DNA from: Bacteroidota bacterium
GTDB taxonomy: Bacteria > Bacteroidota > Bacteroidia > 2-12-FULL-35-15
Direction of reading: 5' to 3'
Assembly (NCBI GenBank): GCA_005772895.1
Contig: SXIH01000040.1
Coordinates: 477-64,476 of the forward strand
Length of the DNA: 64,000 nt
The position numbers were made by a program, and so were the translations under genes. The notes under the pieces are model-generated. The model did not search any database. It saw only the letters and a list, made by a program, of their open reading frames with translations, and was not told the origin of the DNA. This document shows positions 4,885 to 31,317 of the stretch, piece by piece. Within the stretch, counting starts at the first letter, position 1. Every line of letters begins with the position of its first letter.

Positions 4885-5769
4885 ATGAATATGGAAGCGC
4901 AATTACACACTTGGGTAGACCGTCAGGAGTATCCCTTTAAATCACAATGGTTATCACTTAAAGCTGGAAATATGCATTACATAGATGAAGGAGAAGGTGA
5001 GATTCTTCTCTTTCTCCATGGCAACCCGGTTTGGTCATATTCTTTCAGGAAATTAGTGAAAGTTCTGTCAAAAAAGTATCGTTGTATTGCAATTGATCAC
5101 TTAGGTTTCGGATTGTCTGATAAGCCACCCGGATTTAGTTACCTGCCGGAAGACCATTCTAAAAATCTAACTGAATTTATTGAATTAAAAGGGTTGAAAA
5201 ACATAACTCTTTTTGTTAATGATTGGGGTGGTCCAATTGGATTGAATTATGCTGTAAACTTTTCTGATAATATTGCAAAACTGGTTATTTTTAATACCTT
5301 CATGTGGTCAGTAAAAGGAGATAAACACTATGAAAAATTCAGTGCACTCATGGGAGGCAGAATTGGTAAGTTCCTCAACTTGAAATTTAACTTTTTTGGA
5401 AAAATTGTTATTCCAAAAGCTTATGGAGATAAAAACAGATTGGATAAGAAGACAAAATATCAATTAACCAGACATGTTCCTAGTCCAGCCGAAAGATTAG
5501 GGGTTTGGATTTTTCCGAAGGAAATAATCGGATCCTCTGAATGGCTAAACTCAATTTGGGAAAAAAGAAAGCAAATTGAGAATAAACAAACCCTATTAAT
5601 TTGGGGAATGAAAGACATTGCGTTTAGGCAAAAAGAGCTTGAAACGTTCAAATTATTTCTTAAAAACTCGCAAACTTTGGTTTTAGAAGATGTTGGTCAT
5701 TATGTTCAGGATGAAGCCGGAGAAAGTATTATAGAGCCGATAAACGAATTCTTAACAAGTAGCACATGA
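4885..5769 (+). CDS. Alpha/beta hydrolase, haloalkane dehalogenase-like
   Basis: HGNPVWSY, IDHLGFGLSDKP, DWGG nucleophile elbow, C-terminal GHYVQDE. Start may be 4891. Confidence 0.85.
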   Translation: MNMEAQLHTWVDRQEYPFKSQWLSLKAGNMHYIDEGEGEILLFLHGNPVWSYSFRKLVKVLSKKYRCIAIDHLGFGLSDKPPGFSYLPEDHSKNLTEFIELKGLKNITLFVNDWGGPIGLNYAVNFSDNIAKLVIFNTFMWSVKGDKHYEKFSALMGGRIGKFLNLKFNFFGKIVIPKAYGDKNRLDKKTKYQLTRHVPSPAERLGVWIFPKEIIGSSEWLNSIWEKRKQIENKQTLLIWGMKDIAFRQKELETFKLFLKNSQTLVLEDVGHYVQDEAGESIIEPINEFLTSST

Positions 5770-9294: not shown

Positions 9295-9858
9295 TTGAGC
9301 GAAGGCGACTATGATTTAATTAATTCCTGCCTGAAAGGGAACAGGAATTCTTATAATCTGCTATATGAAAAATATGCGGGAAGGATGTTTAATGTATGTA
9401 TGCGATATGCTAATAGCCGTGAAGAGGCCGAGGATTTGCTTCAGGAGAGTTTCATAACTTCCTTTTCAAAACTCAACCAGTTTCAGATGCTTGGATCCTT
9501 TGAAGGATGGCTCAGACGCATTACAATAAACACGTGCCTACTGTCATATAGAGATAAATATAATTCGCTTTCTGTGCACATCGATGACGAATACTTTTCT
9601 GAAACAATTGCCGAAGAAATAAATGTATTACATCAAATGGAAGCTGCCGATCTTATTAAATTAATACAAAAATTACCTTCCGGCTGTAAGGCTGTTTTGA
9701 ACGCATACGCAATAGATGGTTGCTCGCATAAAGAAATTTCTGAGATGCTGGGCATCTCAATCGGCACATCAAAATCACAGCTTTTTGATGCAAGAAAAAT
9801 GCTGCGAAAGATGTTAAATACAGATACTATTACTAAAAAGGCTTATAATGAAAAATGA
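9295..9858 (+). CDS. ECF sigma-70 factor
   Basis: TTG start. EAEDLLQESF, GSFEGWLRRI, SHKEISEMLGISIGTSKSQL. Confidence 0.93.
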   Translation: MSEGDYDLINSCLKGNRNSYNLLYEKYAGRMFNVCMRYANSREEAEDLLQESFITSFSKLNQFQMLGSFEGWLRRITINTCLLSYRDKYNSLSVHIDDEYFSETIAEEINVLHQMEAADLIKLIQKLPSGCKAVLNAYAIDGCSHKEISEMLGISIGTSKSQLFDARKMLRKMLNTDTITKKAYNEK

Positions 9859-11413
9859 ACTCAACGATAAAGATTTTGATGATGCTTTAAGGGCAAAGTC
9901 TTCTGAGTATCATCCTACTCCTTCAGCCGATGTTTGGGAGAAAATTGACTATGCCATTGCTAATCTTGAAGAAAAAAAATCACGCAGAAAGTTGTTTTAT
10001 TTCAGATGGATTACAGCTGCTTTGGTCATTATTTCATCGTCACTAGCTATTTTTATTTTTACTGGTAAAAACAAAAGCAAAATTTCCGAAATAAATAAAT
10101 CGGCTTCCAATGTCCAGGTTTCGGAAAACGATAAAATAGAACAGAGCAACCATTTAAATCAAAACACAAACGATCAAAAATTTGATGACAATTCTGCTCC
10201 CAATAGCAAAGAAAAAATAGATTCAACCACGCTAAATGAAATCAATTACTCAAATAATTTAATCACAAATCAAGTTTTTTCAGGAAAAGTTAGTGTAAAC
10301 AATAACACAATTGTAAATAACAAGAACTTGATTAGCTCTAATAAATCAAATCTAAATCATGATACGATTTTAAAAGAAAATAAAGGAAATTACTCTTTCA
10401 AAAACAACAATGTAAATTCGTTCTCGAATAAGACCAATGTTGACTCCACTATAAAAATCAATAACAACAATTTGATATCACAAAAAATGATTAATAAATC
10501 ATTGCTTAATAAGGATTCAATAGCATTGAATCAAAAAAATCTTGTAAAACATGATACTACTACAGCTACGATTGATAGCGTAGCGAAGCTATCAACCATT
10601 ACAATGATTAAAAAAGACACGGCAATAAATGAAACTCCATTATCCAAAACAGAAATGGATTCCATTCTTAAAACAAAACAAAGTAAATGGTCTTTCGGAA
10701 TTTCCGTCTTGCCAATGTTAACATCAATTCGGGTATCGAATGGCCAAAATCAACCTCCCTCAAATAGTTCATTTCAACCTACAAAAGAATTTAATCAGCC
10801 CTTTGGAATTGTAGCGGGCATTAATGGTCTTTATGATTTAAATACAAAACTCAGCATTTACGGTGCTATCAATTATTATGAACGTTTTGTGCATTCCGAA
10901 TTTTCTAATTGCTATGTGAAAAATTCACCGGCACCTTATCAATCATTTTCCACTGGGGGTGGTTCAACCCGTATAAGTAAAACTGATTTTCAACCATTCT
11001 TTGATTTAAACCCTGGTGCAGACAGTATTAAAATGAACGTTGACATTAAAAATCAATACTACTTTTTGAATATTCCAATTTCACTTCAATATCAAGTAAT
11101 AAGCAAAAAAGTGCAGCTCTCTTTTATGCTAGGTGCAAATGCAAATTATTTTTTCGTACGCAAAACATCAGCACACGTTACTGATTTATCTTCGGGCGAG
11201 TCAAAAATATTATACCCACAAAATCAAATCGCTTACGAAAAACTTCATTTTGGTTTGCAGGGAGGAATGGAAATAGGGTATGGCTTTAAAAAATCTACTT
11301 TCTATTTTTCACCAACTTACATGTATTCGATTACCCCGTTTGTTAAGGGTAATTCAGGCTCTATTTACCCTAAAGGTTATGGCCTTGGTATAGGCTTTAG
11401 GTATCACCTTTAG
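9848..11413 (+). CDS. Putative anti-sigma factor with TM helix, Asn-rich linker and C-terminal outer-membrane beta-barrel
   Basis: Overlaps the ECF stop. N-terminal DFDDALRAK..PTPSADVWEKI, one TM, low-complexity N/K/S linker, alternating beta strands ending GIGFRYHL. Confidence 0.7.
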   Translation: MKNELNDKDFDDALRAKSSEYHPTPSADVWEKIDYAIANLEEKKSRRKLFYFRWITAALVIISSSLAIFIFTGKNKSKISEINKSASNVQVSENDKIEQSNHLNQNTNDQKFDDNSAPNSKEKIDSTTLNEINYSNNLITNQVFSGKVSVNNNTIVNNKNLISSNKSNLNHDTILKENKGNYSFKNNNVNSFSNKTNVDSTIKINNNNLISQKMINKSLLNKDSIALNQKNLVKHDTTTATIDSVAKLSTITMIKKDTAINETPLSKTEMDSILKTKQSKWSFGISVLPMLTSIRVSNGQNQPPSNSSFQPTKEFNQPFGIVAGINGLYDLNTKLSIYGAINYYERFVHSEFSNCYVKNSPAPYQSFSTGGGSTRISKTDFQPFFDLNPGADSIKMNVDIKNQYYFLNIPISLQYQVISKKVQLSFMLGANANYFFVRKTSAHVTDLSSGESKILYPQNQIAYEKLHFGLQGGMEIGYGFKKSTFYFSPTYMYSITPFVKGNSGSIYPKGYGLGIGFRYHL

Positions 11414-11505
11414 CGCTATTATTATTCTTTCTAATAAGTTAGCCCCTACCTCCGTGGAAGTTCTTTTCCATATTTTTCCAACCGTGAAAAATATTTTCCA
11501 AACAC

Positions 11506-11546
11506 CCCAACCTGCTTAAGTCAAATTGTATCTTATTAAATAGAGA
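11506..11546 (+). promoter_or_regulatory. Putative ECF promoter driving the T9SS cargo cluster
   Basis: CCCAACCT-N12-TTGTATCTT...TAGAGA, matching 9243-9284. Confidence 0.6.
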
Positions 11547-11567
11547 CAATCTTAAAAATCAGAAATC

Positions 11568-12887
11568 ATGAAAAAATTAGTATCATTATTAGCCATTTGC
11601 ACCGTATTAAATTCTAATGCACAAACTCCTTTTATGGGAGTGCCTGGCATTTTTGTGTTAGGATCGGTGGATGTTCCAATGTCAACTTCAGAATACACAA
11701 AATCATTTGTTACCGGAACAGCTGTTCGTACAAAATGGGAATCTATTGAACCATCACCGGGTGTCTATGATTGGTCATTTCTTGACAACGAAATTTCGAA
11801 TGCTGCATCGTATGGAAAAAAAATAAATATTTCCATTTTAGGAAAACCAAGTTGGCTTGTCGGTGAAGGCGTTACAATGTATGATTATATTGATCTAAAT
11901 CCTGCTCATACTACTTATTTAGATACATTGCAGGAAGCAATTACCTGGAGTAGTAGTTTCGTCAGTCAGCTAAAAAATCTGGTCACTCAGCTTTCGATAA
12001 AATATGCAAATGACACAAATGTTGTTTACGTTAATTGTATTTCCGGAATGATGAACAATAATCTTCCAACAAATGACATTGCTGGCAATCCATGGTACAC
12101 AACTTATTCATATGACCCTGATACGTTAATTGCAGCAATGGAAGACGTTATGGATCACTACATGAGTGTTTTTCCAAACACTCCACTTTGGAATTCGGTT
12201 GAAAATGTTTCTTTCGAAATGGCAGCTTCAGGAAACGCAAATAAATATGTCCCAGAGCAATATTCAAACTATGGTGTCGCAACATATCCGGATAGATTTG
12301 GTATTTGGCGCGAAGATTTAGCTGGATGCACAAATACTACAACCACAACTGGCCATTGGTCAATTGTTGTGTCAAATCCTTGTCGTATTGGTGCTCAAAT
12401 GCTTTGGAATGTTCAGGATGGTAGCGATGGAACGTTTCGTATGAATAATTGTGGTTTTACACCTAATACCAAAGATCATGTGTTAGACTCCGCTATGCAA
12501 ACAGGGATTTCAATTGGCATGAGATACTTTGAAATTTACAAAGCTGATATTGATGATGCAAGTCTTGCAACAATTCTTCAAAATGGTCATGATAGTTTGA
12601 TGAATATTGCTTCCGCTTGTATGCCTCTCGTTACTGGGGTTAGCAATGTTGAATCATCGGATATTTTTTCATTATATCCAAACCCAACAAGTGATGCGTT
12701 GAATATCGTGATTAGCGAAAGCAAAGGAACATATTTTCTTTATAACACCTTTGGCCAACTTATCTTAACAGGCAACCTTGCGCAGCCACAAATAACTCTT
12801 GATATATCAATGCTACATTCCGGAAACTATTTTCTGCAAATAATTACCGATAACAAAAGTGCATCAAAAATATTCACTAAGGAATAA
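11568..12887 (+). CDS. T9SS cargo, glycoside-hydrolase-like TIM barrel (GH42/beta-galactosidase-like N-terminus)
   Basis: Signal peptide, WESIEPSPGVYDWSFLD motif, C-terminal LYPNPT...GNYFLQI. Confidence 0.6.
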   Translation: MKKLVSLLAICTVLNSNAQTPFMGVPGIFVLGSVDVPMSTSEYTKSFVTGTAVRTKWESIEPSPGVYDWSFLDNEISNAASYGKKINISILGKPSWLVGEGVTMYDYIDLNPAHTTYLDTLQEAITWSSSFVSQLKNLVTQLSIKYANDTNVVYVNCISGMMNNNLPTNDIAGNPWYTTYSYDPDTLIAAMEDVMDHYMSVFPNTPLWNSVENVSFEMAASGNANKYVPEQYSNYGVATYPDRFGIWREDLAGCTNTTTTTGHWSIVVSNPCRIGAQMLWNVQDGSDGTFRMNNCGFTPNTKDHVLDSAMQTGISIGMRYFEIYKADIDDASLATILQNGHDSLMNIASACMPLVTGVSNVESSDIFSLYPNPTSDALNIVISESKGTYFLYNTFGQLILTGNLAQPQITLDISMLHSGNYFLQIITDNKSASKIFTKE

Positions 12888-12918
12888 TCCTGTTAATGAA
12901 AAAGCAAATTATCTAAGT

Positions 12919-13254
12919 ATGAAAAAATCTATTATGATTGTTGCAACTGCATTAATAATGGTTGCTTGTAACAAAGAGTCAGTTACTCCTTCAGGAGAGA
13001 TACAGTTTACAAAACTTTCGGCTGATAAGGTGATGATATCGTCATTGGAAACGAGCACTATTACAGCAAGTGTATCCAATGCCTGCTCTGAACTAACTTA
13101 CGAATGGAGCGCCTCTTCAGGCAGCATTAACGGAAGTAACGCTTCGGTGGTTTTTACTCCACCTGCAAATTCTGACAAGGTTACAGTAACCTGTACATTG
13201 AATCATCCCGGTAAGCAAACAGTAGCAAAATCTATTGAAATAGCGGTACAATAG
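12919..13254 (+). CDS. Lipoprotein with PKD/Ig-like fold
   Basis: Lipobox LIMVA-C from MKKSIM (start moved from 12859), LTYEWSASSGSI Ig/PKD pattern. Confidence 0.7.
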   Translation: MKKSIMIVATALIMVACNKESVTPSGEIQFTKLSADKVMISSLETSTITASVSNACSELTYEWSASSGSINGSNASVVFTPPANSDKVTVTCTLNHPGKQTVAKSIEIAVQ

Positions 13255-13294
13255 ATATTACAATAATAGAATAAAAAACATTCGCATCTTAAAA

Positions 13295-14293
13295 ATGATA
13301 AAAATGAAAACAATTACTTCTCTATTTTGTGCATTGGGTTTAATTATTGTAAGTGTTTCTGTTTCTGCTCAAACCCTACATCCGAGCCTCGGGCTAACTT
13401 CTGTTCCTTTGAGTTCAGACCCCATCTGTTCCTGGACAACATATCTCGATCCTGATGGTACGTATAATTCATCTGGACTACAGGCTGGTGATACAGCAAC
13501 CGACTATACATTATATGAACCAAATGGTACTCCACACAATTTATTTACGGATTTGCAAACCGGTAAACCGGTTTTATTAATTTCTGGAAGTTACACATGC
13601 CCTGTTTTCCGAGGCAAAGTTGCCACAATTAATAACCTTGTTGCTACTTATGGTACACAAGTAATTGTTTATGTTGTTTACCAAAATGAAGCTCATCCCT
13701 ATCCCGATGTAAGCCCTTACCATACTTTTAGCATGGGAGTTCCTAGTTATCCATATCCACAGCATCTTACGTATGGTGAACGCTTAAATGATATTTCTAT
13801 CATGCAGGCTGATATTAGTTCTACTGTAAATGCAACTATTTTAGTTGACGGGGCATGCAACGAATGGCAAGGGGTTTATGGTCCGGCTCCAAATAACTCA
13901 ACACTTATTTTGCCAAGCGGCATAGTTTATTCAAAACATGGTTGGTTCGACAAGGCTCCTGAATTTGATATAGAAACTGATATAAATAATGTGCTTTCTA
14001 CCTTAGGTATGGATATTTCTCAGTCATTTCCTTTGCAAGTATCGGTTTTCCCCAATCCTTCTTCAAGCGATAAAATTATATTTAGCTTGAAAGGTCAGGA
14101 AATATCAGGCAATCCTTCCGTATCAATTTTTAATACACAAGGCCAAATTATTTCTACTTCGACCAATTTGATTTTTGAAGAGAATGAGAACCAATTTATT
14201 TTCATCTCGCATGGTTTACCAAATGGCATGTATTATTATCATTTGACTTCTGACAATAGAAAAACTTCCGGTAAATTAATTATTAATAACTGA
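13295..14293 (+). CDS. Iodothyronine deiodinase-like thioredoxin-fold protein with T9SS CTD
   Basis: GKPVLLISGSYTCPVF and VVYQNEAHP match deiodinase RPLVLNFGSCT(U/C)P.F and IYIEEAH. C-terminal VFPNP...GMYYY. Confidence 0.75.
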   Translation: MIKMKTITSLFCALGLIIVSVSVSAQTLHPSLGLTSVPLSSDPICSWTTYLDPDGTYNSSGLQAGDTATDYTLYEPNGTPHNLFTDLQTGKPVLLISGSYTCPVFRGKVATINNLVATYGTQVIVYVVYQNEAHPYPDVSPYHTFSMGVPSYPYPQHLTYGERLNDISIMQADISSTVNATILVDGACNEWQGVYGPAPNNSTLILPSGIVYSKHGWFDKAPEFDIETDINNVLSTLGMDISQSFPLQVSVFPNPSSSDKIIFSLKGQEISGNPSVSIFNTQGQIISTSTNLIFEENENQFIFISHGLPNGMYYYHLTSDNRKTSGKLIINN

Positions 14294-14297
14294 TACA

Positions 14298-14972
14298 ATG
14301 AAATTTATTAAACGCACTTTGCTAACTGCCATTATTGCATTTTTTCCAATAGCAATATTTTCTCAGAATTTTGCATATACTTATGACGTTGATAGCATTG
14401 AATATGCGCAACCGGGAAATACTATAACGGTTCATGCCACAATCTCTAACCTAACGGCAAATGCACTTACACTGGATATCGTAAGAGCTGAAAACAATAT
14501 TCCTGCAGGGTGGGAAACTTCTATGTGCATTGATATATGTTTACCGCCAAATGCTAATAGTTCTGTTCTATATCTTCCCGCGTACGCCTCTCAGGCTTTT
14601 ACAATGTACTTTTTTACAGATTCAATTGCCTCAATTGGACAAACATTGATTGAAATTACCAATCAGGCTGACACTTCACAAATGCTTTCATTAAAATTTT
14701 ACGGTGAAACTTCTGCCACCGCTTCTATTTTTACCCTCAACTACCAAGATATTGATTGGAGTCTTTATCCAAATCCTGCTACCGATGTGGTTAATGTTCA
14801 ATTGAGCAATATCAATAAACCTTTTGTGTTGATGTTATATTCATCAACTGGAAAATTAATTTCTACAACAACAGAAAATAAAATTTCCATTCTTGATTTG
14901 CCTGATGGCATATATTATTTGATATTAAGATCTGAAAATGAAATTTCAAATAAAAAGGTTATAAAAAAATGA
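14298..14972 (+). CDS. T9SS cargo, small Ig-like domain
   Basis: Signal peptide, GWETSMCIDIC motif, LYPNPA...GIYYLIL CTD. Confidence 0.75.
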   Translation: MKFIKRTLLTAIIAFFPIAIFSQNFAYTYDVDSIEYAQPGNTITVHATISNLTANALTLDIVRAENNIPAGWETSMCIDICLPPNANSSVLYLPAYASQAFTMYFFTDSIASIGQTLIEITNQADTSQMLSLKFYGETSATASIFTLNYQDIDWSLYPNPATDVVNVQLSNINKPFVLMLYSSTGKLISTTTENKISILDLPDGIYYLILRSENEISNKKVIKK

Positions 14973-15574
14973 TTCAAATGTTGAAAGCAGCGTGTTTATT
15001 ATTAATAATGTGTTGTTTCATTAATGCCAACGCGCAAGAAGTAAAAATCTCAAAATATGATTTAATTCAAGCTGATAAGGATGTTTTATTGTTTTGGACA
15101 ATAGATAGCGGATCAACATGTAACGGAATGACCATTATGCGATCATTAGATGGCTTAGACTATAAGGAAATAGGATATATTGGTGGAGTGTGTGGAAATA
15201 GTAGTTCTCCTACGCCATATAATTTTACAGATGAAAATCCCTTATTGAATACTGTAAACTTTTACAAGCTGCGACTTGGCTATGGTCAGTTTACTGAGGT
15301 TAAATCAATCAAGGTGCAGTACATTGAATCTGGTAAACTTTTCGTTTATCCAAACCCCACTATTGACAATACTATTATTGAGTTTAGCAATGATAATAGT
15401 AGACGTTATTCTGTAATTATAACAAGCAGTTTTGGGAATGTTGTTTTTGTAAAAGATGAAATAACCGAAAGTCAAATTTTATTAAACACATTTGGTTGGA
15501 GCCCCGGAGCATATTACATTACTCTTTTTGATAACTCCGGAAGCATTTTAAAAGAAAAATTAATCATTAAATAA
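14969..15574 (+). CDS. T9SS cargo, small beta-sandwich protein
   Basis: Signal peptide, LFW...SGSTCNG...GVCG...FYKLRLG, VYPNP CTD. Paralogous to 25941-26543. Confidence 0.75.
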   Translation: MIQMLKAACLLLIMCCFINANAQEVKISKYDLIQADKDVLLFWTIDSGSTCNGMTIMRSLDGLDYKEIGYIGGVCGNSSSPTPYNFTDENPLLNTVNFYKLRLGYGQFTEVKSIKVQYIESGKLFVYPNPTIDNTIIEFSNDNSRRYSVIITSSFGNVVFVKDEITESQILLNTFGWSPGAYYITLFDNSGSILKEKLIIK

Positions 15575-15580
15575 AATCAA

Positions 15581-16699
15581 ATGAAAAAACGAACAAACTT
15601 AATCTATCTACTCTTGTTCTTATTAATAACTGTAAATGGGTTCTCACAATTGAGTGGTACGACACAACCAATTACATTTTTCGGACCTGTAACAAGTAAC
15701 AATGTCACCTTTACAATTTATCTCCCGCCAAATTATTCTACCAACACTTCAAAATATTATCCGGTAGTTTATCATTTACATGGCGTGAATGGTGCACATG
15801 ATGGCCCTCAGATTAATGATGTGCCTTTGGCATTTGAAACAGCCGCCACAGCCGGGTTATGGGACGAGGCAATAATTGTTTTTCCTGATGGTTATGCCAA
15901 TAGTATGTGGGCAGATAGTTATGATATGAACAAACCTGCCGAGACAAATATCATTCAAGAAATTATTCCTTACGTTGATGCTAACTACAGAACCATTCCT
16001 GACGCGCAACATCGTTTCATGGAAGGATTTTCAATGGGCGGTTTCGGAGCTTTAAAATTTTACACAAAATACCCGAGTTTGTTCTGTAAAGTTGTAAGTT
16101 ATGACGGGGCAATTCATACTTGGTCAACATTAACAGCTGCGCATCCCGATATTACTTTAGAAATATTCAATAACGATTCAACGCTATTCAATACACAAGC
16201 ATCACCTTGGACATTTTTGGTACTTAATCAAGCTTCATTTCAATCTGATACTGTAATTAATCTTAATGTAGGTGTTCTGACAACATATAATGGTTCAATG
16301 AGTAGTTATTTGAACGGACTAAGCATTCCACATGGATATGTTTTAACCGGGTGCCCGCATAATGTGAGTTGCCTTACACTTGCAGAAGGAAATAACACTG
16401 CGTTATTTTTTTCAGAATGTATCAACAATTCCACCACTTCTATTTCTGAAATTGAAAACGATGACCAATCTTTTACCATTTTTCCAAATCCTGCAAATTC
16501 TTTCGTTACGGTTCATCTAAATAACGGCACCAACAACGCTAAATTGAATATTTACAATTCATTTGGACAAAATATTTACAGCACAAATGTAGTGGAGGAT
16601 GAAAGCATAGATATTTCAAACATCCCTGCTGGCGTTTATTATATAAGATTGAATAATTCTGAAAAAATAGAAACAAAAAGACTAATTCTTAACCGATAA
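15581..16699 (+). CDS. Putative esterase (alpha/beta hydrolase) with T9SS CTD
   Basis: IYLPPNY...YPVVYHLHG, GFSMGG nucleophile motif, IFPNPA CTD. Confidence 0.85.
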   Translation: MKKRTNLIYLLLFLLITVNGFSQLSGTTQPITFFGPVTSNNVTFTIYLPPNYSTNTSKYYPVVYHLHGVNGAHDGPQINDVPLAFETAATAGLWDEAIIVFPDGYANSMWADSYDMNKPAETNIIQEIIPYVDANYRTIPDAQHRFMEGFSMGGFGALKFYTKYPSLFCKVVSYDGAIHTWSTLTAAHPDITLEIFNNDSTLFNTQASPWTFLVLNQASFQSDTVINLNVGVLTTYNGSMSSYLNGLSIPHGYVLTGCPHNVSCLTLAEGNNTALFFSECINNSTTSISEIENDDQSFTIFPNPANSFVTVHLNNGTNNAKLNIYNSFGQNIYSTNVVEDESIDISNIPAGVYYIRLNNSEKIETKRLILNR

Positions 16700-16939: not shown

Positions 16940-16975
16940 AATGCCTGACATTAACATGTCGGGCATTAATTTTTC
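16940..16975 (+). terminator. Intrinsic terminator after the T9SS cluster
   Basis: AATGCCTGACAT-TAAC-ATGTCGGGCATT followed by a T-rich tail. Confidence 0.7.
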
Positions 16976-17023: not shown

Positions 17024-17872
17024 GTGAATGACCGCTGTAAAACTCTTCTATTTGAACTTGAAGAGCAACTTAAATTTATTTCTCTTGAAACCGATAACCC
17101 GATAGCTTCTGCCGAGATTTCGATTCAGGTATCTCAAAAAATACTCGGCAACTTAAAAGCGTTTATAGTAAAATATAAATTCAGAAGTACATCCGAGGAA
17201 ATAAAATTTTTCAAAGAACACAAGCCTGCATTTCACAGCAAACTTATTTATCATTTACTGGTTTACTATATAGAAACCAAGCGACCAAGCGGTGGGCAAA
17301 AGGTCATTAAAAAGTATCTTCAAAATGAATTGGACAAACTAAAAAGATATTTCGATTCCAATTTAGAATTCTACACATACTACCGCACTGGCAGTAATTA
17401 TCTTGACCACAAATATTTTGTCCGCGATAAGTATGATCCTCGATTATCACCTGAACCTTTCTTCTTTGACAATGATCCGAAATTTTGCACAAGTCATGAT
17501 TATCGGGTTTCAATGATTCTGGCAAATGATTTATTGCAGGTGTATTTAGAAAATGAGTTATCAGAACTTGAAATGAAAGAACCTAAAAAAGCAGAAGTCA
17601 ATCAGAAGTCGGAAGTAACCTGGACAGGGCCCAAAGCCGCGCTAATTGAGCTTTTATATTCCTTGCATTCAGAACCGGTTATCAATTACGGCAAAGCCGA
17701 ATTACAACACATTGCTTCAACCTTAGAAAAAGCGTTTAACATTGATTTAGGGCAATATCACCGCACTTTTCTGGAATTAAGAATGCGCAAGAGTGCTCGT
17801 ACTAAATTTCTCGATAGCTTGCGCGAATCTTTAAAACAACGCATGGATAGTGCGGATGAAGATTTGAAATAG
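17024..17872 (+). CDS. rteC: RteC-domain regulator
   Basis: EEIKFFKEHKP, FYTYYRTG..YLD.KYFVR, WTG.K.ALIELLYSL, F.ELRMRK..RTKFLD.L, characteristic of Bacteroidota CTn RteC. Confidence 0.85.
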   Translation: MNDRCKTLLFELEEQLKFISLETDNPIASAEISIQVSQKILGNLKAFIVKYKFRSTSEEIKFFKEHKPAFHSKLIYHLLVYYIETKRPSGGQKVIKKYLQNELDKLKRYFDSNLEFYTYYRTGSNYLDHKYFVRDKYDPRLSPEPFFFDNDPKFCTSHDYRVSMILANDLLQVYLENELSELEMKEPKKAEVNQKSEVTWTGPKAALIELLYSLHSEPVINYGKAELQHIASTLEKAFNIDLGQYHRTFLELRMRKSARTKFLDSLRESLKQRMDSADEDLK

Positions 17873-31238: not shown

Positions 31239-31312
31239 GACCCCATAGCTCAGCTGGATAGAGCAACGGTTTTCTAAACCGTAGGCCTTTGGTTCGAATC
31301 CAAATGGGGTCA
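31239..31312 (+). tRNA. tRNA-Arg (anticodon TCT)
   Basis: GACCCCA/TGGGGTC acceptor stem, GCTCAGCTGGATAGAGC D arm, ACGGT-TT-TCT-AA-ACCGT anticodon arm, GGTTCGAATCC T arm. Confidence 0.97.
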
Positions 31313-31317
31313 CCTTT

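Follow-up and report, generated by a model that had tools for sequence, protein, structure and literature searches.

An exported cysteine-type protein of the deiodinase family with an adjacent Ig-like partner in an uncultured Bacteroidota bacterium

Results and Discussion

A deiodinase-like gene for a predicted cargo protein of the type IX secretion system

The stretch of DNA analyzed here (64,000 nucleotides of contig SXIH01000040.1 from a Bacteroidota bacterium; referred to as the window) contains at 13295..14293 on the + strand an intact open reading frame (ORF) of 332 amino acids (aa) for a protein related to the vertebrate iodothyronine deiodinases Dio1-3. The protein is predicted to be exported and has a Cys residue at the position of the catalytic selenocysteine. 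Gene callers place the start at Met4 (13304), giving the 329-aa protein P0001; except where P0001 is named, we use the numbering of the 332-aa ORF.

All parts of the gene described below are on the + strand. By reading of the sequence, residues 1-25 (13295..13369) form a signal peptide that begins with MIKMK, continues with a hydrophobic core and ends with a predicted cleavage site between SVSA and Q; Ala-Gln is found at this spot in the majority of 120 homologs. Conservation and the structural model then delimit a family-specific N-terminal strap (aa 26-63; 13370..13483), which includes Cys45 (TGT, 13427-13429). Residues Pro38, Cys45, and Gly61 of the strap are invariant in the alignment of the 120 homologs, and the strap is a coil with a predicted local distance difference test (pLDDT) score of 86-95 in the AlphaFold2 model. 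The strap is followed by a deiodinase-like thioredoxin-fold domain (aa 64-236; 13484..14002), as defined by Pfam, the alignment to Dio3, and Foldseek. This domain contains the active-site motif S99-Y-T101-C102-P-V-F-R106 (13589..13612), the sequence Y129-x-x-E132-A-H134-P (13679..13699) at the N-terminal edge of a loop-D-like insertion, the insertion itself (approximately aa 136-156; 13700..13762), and Cys188 (TGC, 13856..13858), which co-occurrence marks as the probable disulfide partner of Cys45. The C-terminal end (aa 251-332; 14045..14290) is a type A C-terminal sorting domain (CTD) of a type IX secretion system (T9SS). The gene is under purifying selection, with a ratio of nonsynonymous to synonymous substitution rates (dN/dS) of 0.10 in comparison with a 77%-identical homolog on the metagenomic contig L085.

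The CTD matched Por_Secre_tail (PF18962) with 41.3 bits (cutoff 27) and TIGR04183 with 42.3 bits (cutoff 23) over aa 251-331. The protein thus combines the two characteristics of type A T9SS cargo, i.e., a Sec-type signal peptide, here identified by eye, and a CTD that scores above threshold, and both elements had been proposed in an initial annotation of the locus. The protein should reach the outer surface or the medium via the Sec pathway and the T9SS. At least eight further ORFs with a CTD are present in the window.

Sequence and fold assign the protein to the deiodinase family

The initial annotation had suggested that the protein is a deiodinase homolog with Cys at the selenocysteine position, based on two strings of residues that were aligned by eye to vertebrate deiodinases. 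These strings map to aa 90-108 (nt 13562-13618; GKPVLLISGSYTCPVFRGK) and aa 125-135 (nt 13667-13699; VYVVYQNEAHP). In a Pfam scan, T4_deiodinase (PF00837) matched aa 64-213 with 34.7 bits (gathering threshold 27; E = 1.5e-8; profile positions 75-216), while Redoxin reached 13.6 bits, which is under its cutoff of 26.6, and AhpC-TSA gave no match. The profile comparison that had been proposed as a check is therefore in favor of the deiodinase family. Using phmmer, the top sequence match in the PDB was mouse Dio3 (4tr3; E = 3.4e-7; aa 65-211) followed by Dio2. Similarly, a profile built from 120 family members and searched against the PDB with a threshold of E <= 0.01 matched, among the thioredoxin-fold chains, only Dio3 (6.3e-9) and Dio2 (3.7e-6).

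The AlphaFold2 model of the protein, which was built on the alignment of 120 homologs, has a mean pLDDT of 90.4. The two top Foldseek matches to this model were Dio3 (2.1e-9; approximately 19% identity) and Dio2 (1.9e-7), ahead of ResA, DsbE, DipZ, and peroxiredoxins, and query coverage was also highest for Dio3 and Dio2 (TMq of 0.42 and 0.44 versus 0.36 for ResA). The overall fold is shared with TlpA, ResA, CcmG, and DsbE as well as with peroxiredoxins (Foldseek E values of 2e-7 to 5e-6; TMt of approximately 0.8 for ResA), but the window protein has neither the CxxC motif nor the PxxxTxxC/Arg signature of these proteins, and their profiles score lower. A generic peroxiredoxin or TlpA fold without the deiodinase insertion is thus not the better match: T4_deiodinase outscores the alternatives, and an insertion is present at the place of loop-D. 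Among 55 relatives with a longer chain (long forms; see below), T4_deiodinase was detected in 54 (best E value, 1.7e-12), AhpC-TSA in 34 (best E value, 9e-6), and Redoxin in 23.

The NCBIfam model NF038285 for "deiodinase family protein" (deiodinase_rel) matched with 49.5 bits at a cutoff of 250, and covered positions 174-321 of its 347 positions. Because this score is far under the cutoff, we suggest that the window protein represents a distinct branch of the deiodinase family. Pfam, the PDB sequence search, and Foldseek agree on the homology, and the codon at the selenocysteine position is TGC (13598-13600). Altogether, we conclude with high confidence that the window protein is an exported protein of the deiodinase family.

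The proposed proton relay of deiodinases is present around Cys102

We mapped residues using a HMMER alignment to the Dio3 chain, in which the chain index plus 113 equals the Dio3 numbering and Sec170 (selenocysteine) falls on the aligned Cys, and counted residues in the alignment columns over 120 and 261 relatives. In this alignment, SGSYTCPVF of the window protein is opposite FGSCTUPPF of Dio3, and Cys102 is the counterpart of Sec170. Accordingly, the window protein shares with Dio1-3 (4TR3 and 4TR4 for mouse Dio3; 9H48 for mouse Dio2) the thioredoxin fold, a peroxiredoxin-like N-terminal hairpin, a nucleophile within S-x-T-(U/C)-P-x-F, and a strand with Tyr-x-x-Glu-Ala-His-Pro that leads into the loop-D-like insertion. 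It differs from them in having Cys for selenocysteine, an additional N-terminal strap with the probable Cys45-Cys188 disulfide, and an Ig-like partner, and the N-terminal membrane anchor of the Dio proteins is replaced by the signal peptide and the T9SS CTD.

In the paper on the Dio2 structure, a proton relay was proposed that includes Ser167, Thr169, Tyr197, Glu200, His202, and His219, located at the edges of the omega loop loop-D (PMC11592359). All six positions are present in the window protein. Ser99 corresponds to Ser167 (kept in 220/261 relatives), Thr101 to Thr169 (246/261), Tyr129 to Tyr197 (254/261), Glu132 to Glu200 (254/261), and His134 to His202 (256/261), and these five are conserved family-wide; Cys102 itself is kept in 259/261. 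The sixth, His157, is part of a Gln156-His157 pair that follows the insertion and is aligned with Gln218-His219 of Dio3. Arg106, located four residues past Cys102, is specific to the family and present in 256/261 relatives.

Secondary structure assignment of the model by DSSP revealed a coil of approximately 23 residues from His134-Pro135 to a helix that starts near residue 160. Coil is assigned to residues 127-156 of P0001, with a lower pLDDT (69-86). The insertion aligns to the Dio3 loop with a difference in length of 3 residues, as determined by sequence alignment.

Cys102 is the only conserved Cys that lacks a co-varying partner

The mature window protein contains exactly three Cys residues (Cys45, Cys102, and Cys188). 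Of the 261 relatives, 218 have both Cys45 and Cys188, 20 have neither, and at most 4 are discordant. Sequences without this pair are spread over several branches in a quick tree. The long forms contain a Cys pair in the linker, which is complete in 48 and absent in 7 with 0 discordant cases, and the Cys pair C77/C81 of the Ig-like domain co-occurs in 57/58. Hence, every conserved Cys has a co-varying partner with the sole exception of the catalytic Cys102. Because only Cys102 lacks such a partner, we suggest a 1-Cys enzyme that is stapled by disulfides and in which Cys102 is the sole free thiol; the Cys45-Cys188 disulfide probably staples the N-terminal strap to the core. Judged from this pattern in the sequences, the protein probably works by catalysis with a lone Cys, a conclusion that we favor with some reservation.

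We also considered Cys188 as the equivalent of the resolving Cys239 of Dio3. We rejected this assignment because Cys188, 4 residues past the aligned Asp, occupies the opposite end of the strand and tracks Cys45 and not Cys102.

The Ig-like partner is encoded by a separate gene that has remained adjacent

The partner gene (14298..14972, + strand) starts 4 nt after the stop codon of the deiodinase-like gene. It encodes a 224-aa protein with a signal peptide, an Ig-like beta-sandwich (GW..S.C77.D.C81, within the longer motif R.ENN.P.GW..S.C.D.C), and its own T9SS CTD. In the partner model (pLDDT 92.2), the protein is all-beta with the Ig-like sandwich followed by the CTD. Using Foldseek, only generic folds of the Ig-like or fibronectin type III-like kind were recovered, e.g., RbmA, factor XIII barrels, and the PorA N-domain, and in a Pfam scan, no family covered the Ig-like region. 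A word-index search with the 224-aa protein and the middle region of the long form P0004 as queries returned only close relatives.

By BLASTP, the partner matches the middle domain and CTD of 440-455-aa long forms (P0004 and P0017; 2e-26). On the strength of this match, we identify the partner as the middle domain of the usual fusion, which is detached in the window. Of 84 family loci, 73 have the Ig-like domain in fused form, 8 have it separately, and 3 lack it. Thus, most relatives have a single chain of 440-455 aa, whereas the window has two adjacent genes for exported proteins. True splits with the partner immediately downstream were identified at L001/L005, L007, L009, and L031; of the other separate cases, L066 and L068 appear to carry a frameshift, and L057 represents a tandem duplication. 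In the latter (L057:2935-5760), found in one metagenome-assembled genome of Bacteroidetes, two fused deiodinase-like genes lie in tandem, and both code for a catalytic and an Ig-like domain.

In a maximum-likelihood tree, the short clade that includes the window protein (P0001-P0003) is sister to the fused proteins P0004 and P0005 with a support of 100/100. The other split clade is located elsewhere in the tree, so that the split arose at least two times. After each split, the two halves still lie side by side, and each has acquired or kept export signals. Compared with L085, both genes are under purifying selection (dN/dS of 0.10 for the deiodinase-like gene and 0.27 for the partner gene). 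One would expect a domain that is only a spacer to disappear once the gene has split, and we therefore suggest that the enzyme and its partner are functionally tied.

We note that the partner evolves much faster than its operon neighbors: comparing 14298-14972 of the window with L085:3751-4425, the aa identity is 58% at a dN/dS of 0.27 versus 86-91% and 0.04-0.06 for the neighbors. This fast evolution fits a surface-exposed binding module under weaker constraint or diversifying selection.

The family is found in uncultured lineages

Approximately 289 homologs were identified after clustering at 90% identity, and nearly all have the PF00837 plus PF18962 architecture. At 50% clustering, the search returned 857 clusters at E <= 1e-3, 301 at E <= 1e-10, and 94 at E <= 1e-30. 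Both signature peptides were found in 186 of approximately 185,000 species genomes. The best 80 of these 186 genomes are all metagenome-assembled, with no cultured isolate among them, and belong to Saprospiraceae, Lewinellaceae, Flavobacteriales, Chitinophagales, Cytophagales, and Ignavibacteria. Because the family is almost confined to uncultured lineages, it has so far not been studied. The DNA of the window is present in freshwater metagenome runs. Habitats named in the record titles of the best 80 genomes include activated sludge, groundwater, lakes, and a Black Sea sample from 150 m.

The T9SS-exported relatives (e.g., P0044 and P0047) are 35-77% identical to the window protein and have the same invariant residues and the same CTD. 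In databases, they are named "T9SS type A sorting domain-containing protein" or "deiodinase-like protein," the latter being the NCBI name for some members. A 2005 study described bacterial deiodinase-like proteins of the selenocysteine and Cys types, whose function was unknown and presumed to be redox (PMC1088965), and the window protein resembles these marine-metagenome proteins and the NF038285 proteins in being a prokaryotic PF00837 protein of a group with selenocysteine and Cys forms. A 2026 review describes bacterial PF00837 proteins as still uncharacterized and mentions a selenoprotein form with a UxxC motif (PMC13188914). The family of the window protein differs from that form in having a single Cys in T-C-P-V-F. 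Our literature searches for deiodinase together with T9SS, and for deiodinase together with Bacteroidetes and dehalogenase, returned no paper from the library covered. We conclude that the family is already catalogued; what the window adds to it is a gene split that occurred independently and left the partner in place, the 1-Cys pattern, and an operon linked to an extracytoplasmic function (ECF) sigma factor on a probable mobile element.

Possible mechanism and alternative functions

Based on these data, we suggest that the window protein is an exported Cys-type enzyme of the deiodinase branch that works as follows. A small and probably phenolic substrate would be attacked at an electrophilic atom by the thiolate of Cys102, with the network of Ser, Thr, Tyr, Glu, and His residues supplying a proton to the leaving carbon, as occurs in the deiodinases during their first half-reaction. 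As the most specific candidate reaction, a halogen would be removed reductively, whereby a sulfenyl halide or sulfenic acid is formed. An external thiol or sulfide would then have to reduce the oxidized Cys102. In this scheme, the Ig-like partner would cooperate with the enzyme, probably as a substrate-binding or anchoring module. We consider the chances that this proposal is correct as a whole to be evenly balanced. By analogy with the vertebrate enzymes, the reaction may specifically be a reductive dehalogenation, but we make this assignment only tentatively and regard it as doubtful. In its most far-reaching form, the proposal would make the protein a cofactor-free, single-Cys reductive dehalogenase on the outer surface of Bacteroidota and Ignavibacteria from the environment. 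The enzyme would pair with an Ig-like protein dedicated to substrate binding, would be recycled by environmental sulfide or thiols, and would act on natural halophenolics; this combination is unlikely.

Several observations weigh against the proposed enzyme. Published work lists the bacterial members as proteins of unknown function (PMC1088965; PMC13188914). An enzyme at the surface would need reducing equivalents for which there is no known supply, and no extracellular reductant is evident. The His219 position of the relay, which is His157 in the window protein, is occupied by Pro in 223/261 relatives. In the alignment to Dio3, extended by eye, the residues of the thyronine clamp are replaced, i.e., Glu259 by Asn200 and Arg275 by the invariant Trp217, and neither Cys168 (here Tyr100) nor Cys239 (here Ala) of Dio3 has an equivalent. 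The evidence for the Cys45-Cys188 disulfide is co-occurrence, and the sequences that lack this pair are the most divergent members of the family, so that the pattern may reflect few independent events. Finally, the fused long-form homologs share no conserved neighbors that hint at a substrate, and only the Ig-like domain is consistently linked. The initial annotation had described the protein as a surface-exported redox enzyme or dehalogenase. The export signals agree with the first part of this description, while dehalogenation would be a putative activity that has to be set against the Asn and Trp residues at the clamp positions and the missing reductant.

Deiodinases have been described as peroxiredoxin-like (PMC11592359), and in one alternative, the window protein would serve outside the cell as a 1-Cys thiol peroxidase for the detoxification of peroxides at the surface, with Cys102 as the peroxidatic residue and Arg106 replacing the usual peroxiredoxin arginine. 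The presence of Arg106 in nearly all relatives, the peroxiredoxins and bacterioferritin comigratory proteins among the Foldseek matches (approximately 2e-6), and the weak AhpC-TSA and Redoxin matches in 34 and 23 of the 55 long-form relatives are in line with this possibility. Nevertheless, we regard it as distinctly unlikely. The peroxiredoxin models of Pfam stay under threshold for the window protein itself, the family profile matched no peroxiredoxin in the PDB at E <= 0.01, and the PxxxTxxC motif is absent, with Ser at -3 and no Pro at -7 relative to Cys102. Moreover, the position of the essential peroxiredoxin arginine is Asn201 (Asn in 192/261 relatives; alignment by eye), and a peroxidase would face the same reductant problem as the enzyme that we propose. 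A surface exchanger of thiols and disulfides, or of persulfides and polysulfides, that is similar to ResA, TlpA, or DsbE and whose targets are sulfur species or the disulfides of surface proteins or prey proteins would account for the strong fold matches to ResA, DsbE, CcmG, and DipZ (2e-7 to 4e-6; TMt of approximately 0.8) and for the conserved cis-Pro-like G-P-A-P (Pro199 in 235/261 relatives; by eye), which is also found in TlpA-type proteins; the Cys45-Cys188 pair would then be a relay and not a staple. There is also a precedent in HBP35 of P. gingivalis, a thioredoxin-fold T9SS cargo protein with a type A CTD and thioredoxin activity (PMC10202324), but no sequence similarity between HBP35 and the window protein was detected beyond the CTD. 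Because CxxC is missing and T-C-P-V-F contains no second Cys, because every TlpA-like chain in the PDB ranks behind the deiodinases in the sequence-profile searches, and because neither the insertion nor the Dio-specific Glu-Ala-His-Pro edge would be explained, we consider an exchanger distinctly improbable.

The invariant Cys, His, Glu, and Tyr residues also form a typical set of ligands, and thioredoxin-fold copper chaperones (Sco) exist. The protein could therefore be a nonredox surface binding protein in which Cys102, His134, Glu132, and Tyr129 ligate a metal ion or heme for scavenging or sensing and which needs no reductant. HBP35 again provides a precedent as a T9SS-exported thioredoxin-fold protein that binds heme (PMC10202324). 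We find this function highly unlikely, however, since the sequence and fold searches returned neither Sco nor the thioredoxin domain of HBP35, the same residues form the proton relay in deiodinases, and the operon contains no metal-uptake genes. Least probable, and very unlikely, is a true iodothyronine or iodotyrosine deiodinase that takes iodine off thyroid-hormone-like molecules as the vertebrate Dio1-3 do. The set of six relay residues is complete, His157 at the His219 position included, but the clamp for the carboxylate and the 4'-OH (Arg275 and Glu259) is replaced by Trp and Asn, and a source of thyronines is not expected for an uncultured freshwater bacterium. In agreement with this, Zhang and Gladyshev judged thyroid hormones to be an unlikely substrate for the bacterial homologs (PMC1088965).

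If the protein is indeed a surface dehalogenase of natural halophenolics as described above, it would be the extracellular equivalent in prokaryotes of the thyroid-hormone deiodinases and might be related to them by evolution. The exported single-Cys branch offers a clean and easily expressed test case, being small and cofactor-free with one reactive Cys and a defined partner domain. If halophenols or iodotyrosines are dehalogenated, microbial reductive dehalogenation would have a third route in addition to those of the corrinoid and flavin enzymes, one that is cofactor-free and extracellular, and the finding would also inform on how the thyroid-hormone deiodinases originated. A different function would still reveal a use of the ancestral deiodinase scaffold.

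The deiodinase-like gene is part of an array of genes for exported proteins

The deiodinase-like and partner genes are part of a nearly gap-free array of genes for exported proteins (11568..16699, + strand), as defined by ORFs and by Pfam and NCBIfam matches. In order, the array encodes a glycoside hydrolase (GH)-like T9SS protein, a small lipoprotein-like ORF (12859-13254), the deiodinase-like protein, its partner, a 201-aa T9SS protein (14969-15574), and a T9SS esterase (PF00756; 15581-16699). Directly upstream on the + strand are genes for an ECF sigma factor (9295-9858; Sigma70_r2 and r4_2 domains, TIGR02937) and for a 521-aa putative anti-sigma protein (9848-11413), for which no Pfam or NCBIfam match was found. 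Only one strong terminator-like site was identified (16940-16967). The closest NCBIfam models to the T9SS esterase, all scoring far below cutoff, describe the feruloyl esterase part of bifunctional xylanase/feruloyl esterases and extracellular polyhydroxyalkanoate depolymerases.

The metagenomic contig L085 has the same core order of anti-sigma, GH-like, deiodinase-like, partner, and esterase genes with aa identities of 79, 86, 77, 58, and 91%, respectively. Because the fused homologs elsewhere have unrelated neighbors, the operon is lineage-specific and carries little information on the substrate. Compared with 9848-16699 of the window, L085:1-5705 lacks the small lipoprotein-like gene (12859-13254) and the 201-aa T9SS gene (14969-15574). 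In L085, the deiodinase-like protein has a signal peptide that shares 78% identity over 18 aa with residues 21-38 of the window's ORF at 12859, which suggests gene insertion or deletion through recombination inside signal-peptide-coding sequence. The 79% identity of the anti-sigma protein applies to its C-terminal 174 aa, which correspond to a separate gene in L085, while an ORF upstream of that gene matches the middle part with 39% identity; the anti-sigma gene in L085 may be split or frameshifted.

The array is flanked by genes for a tyrosine integrase (1-1215) and RteC (17024-17872), with defense and mercury-transport genes alongside. A location on a mobile island, as put forward in the initial annotation, is plausible from these flanks; the tRNA-Arg gene at 31239-31314 is not obviously an integration site. 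A haloalkane dehalogenase-like hydrolase had been assigned to the same island. This alpha/beta hydrolase (4885-5769) resembles haloalkane dehalogenases in the PDB (approximately 1e-28) but is under every NCBIfam cutoff. The gene is 7.5 kb away with oppositely oriented genes in between, so that it provides no evidence for a common dehalogenation pathway. We rejected it as a functional partner of the deiodinase-like protein because it belongs to a different transcription unit, appears cytoplasmic, and has no CTD. Its nearest PDB entries are 8ooh (6e-88) and 8ckp (5e-84), both deposited simply as "Alpha/beta fold hydrolase."

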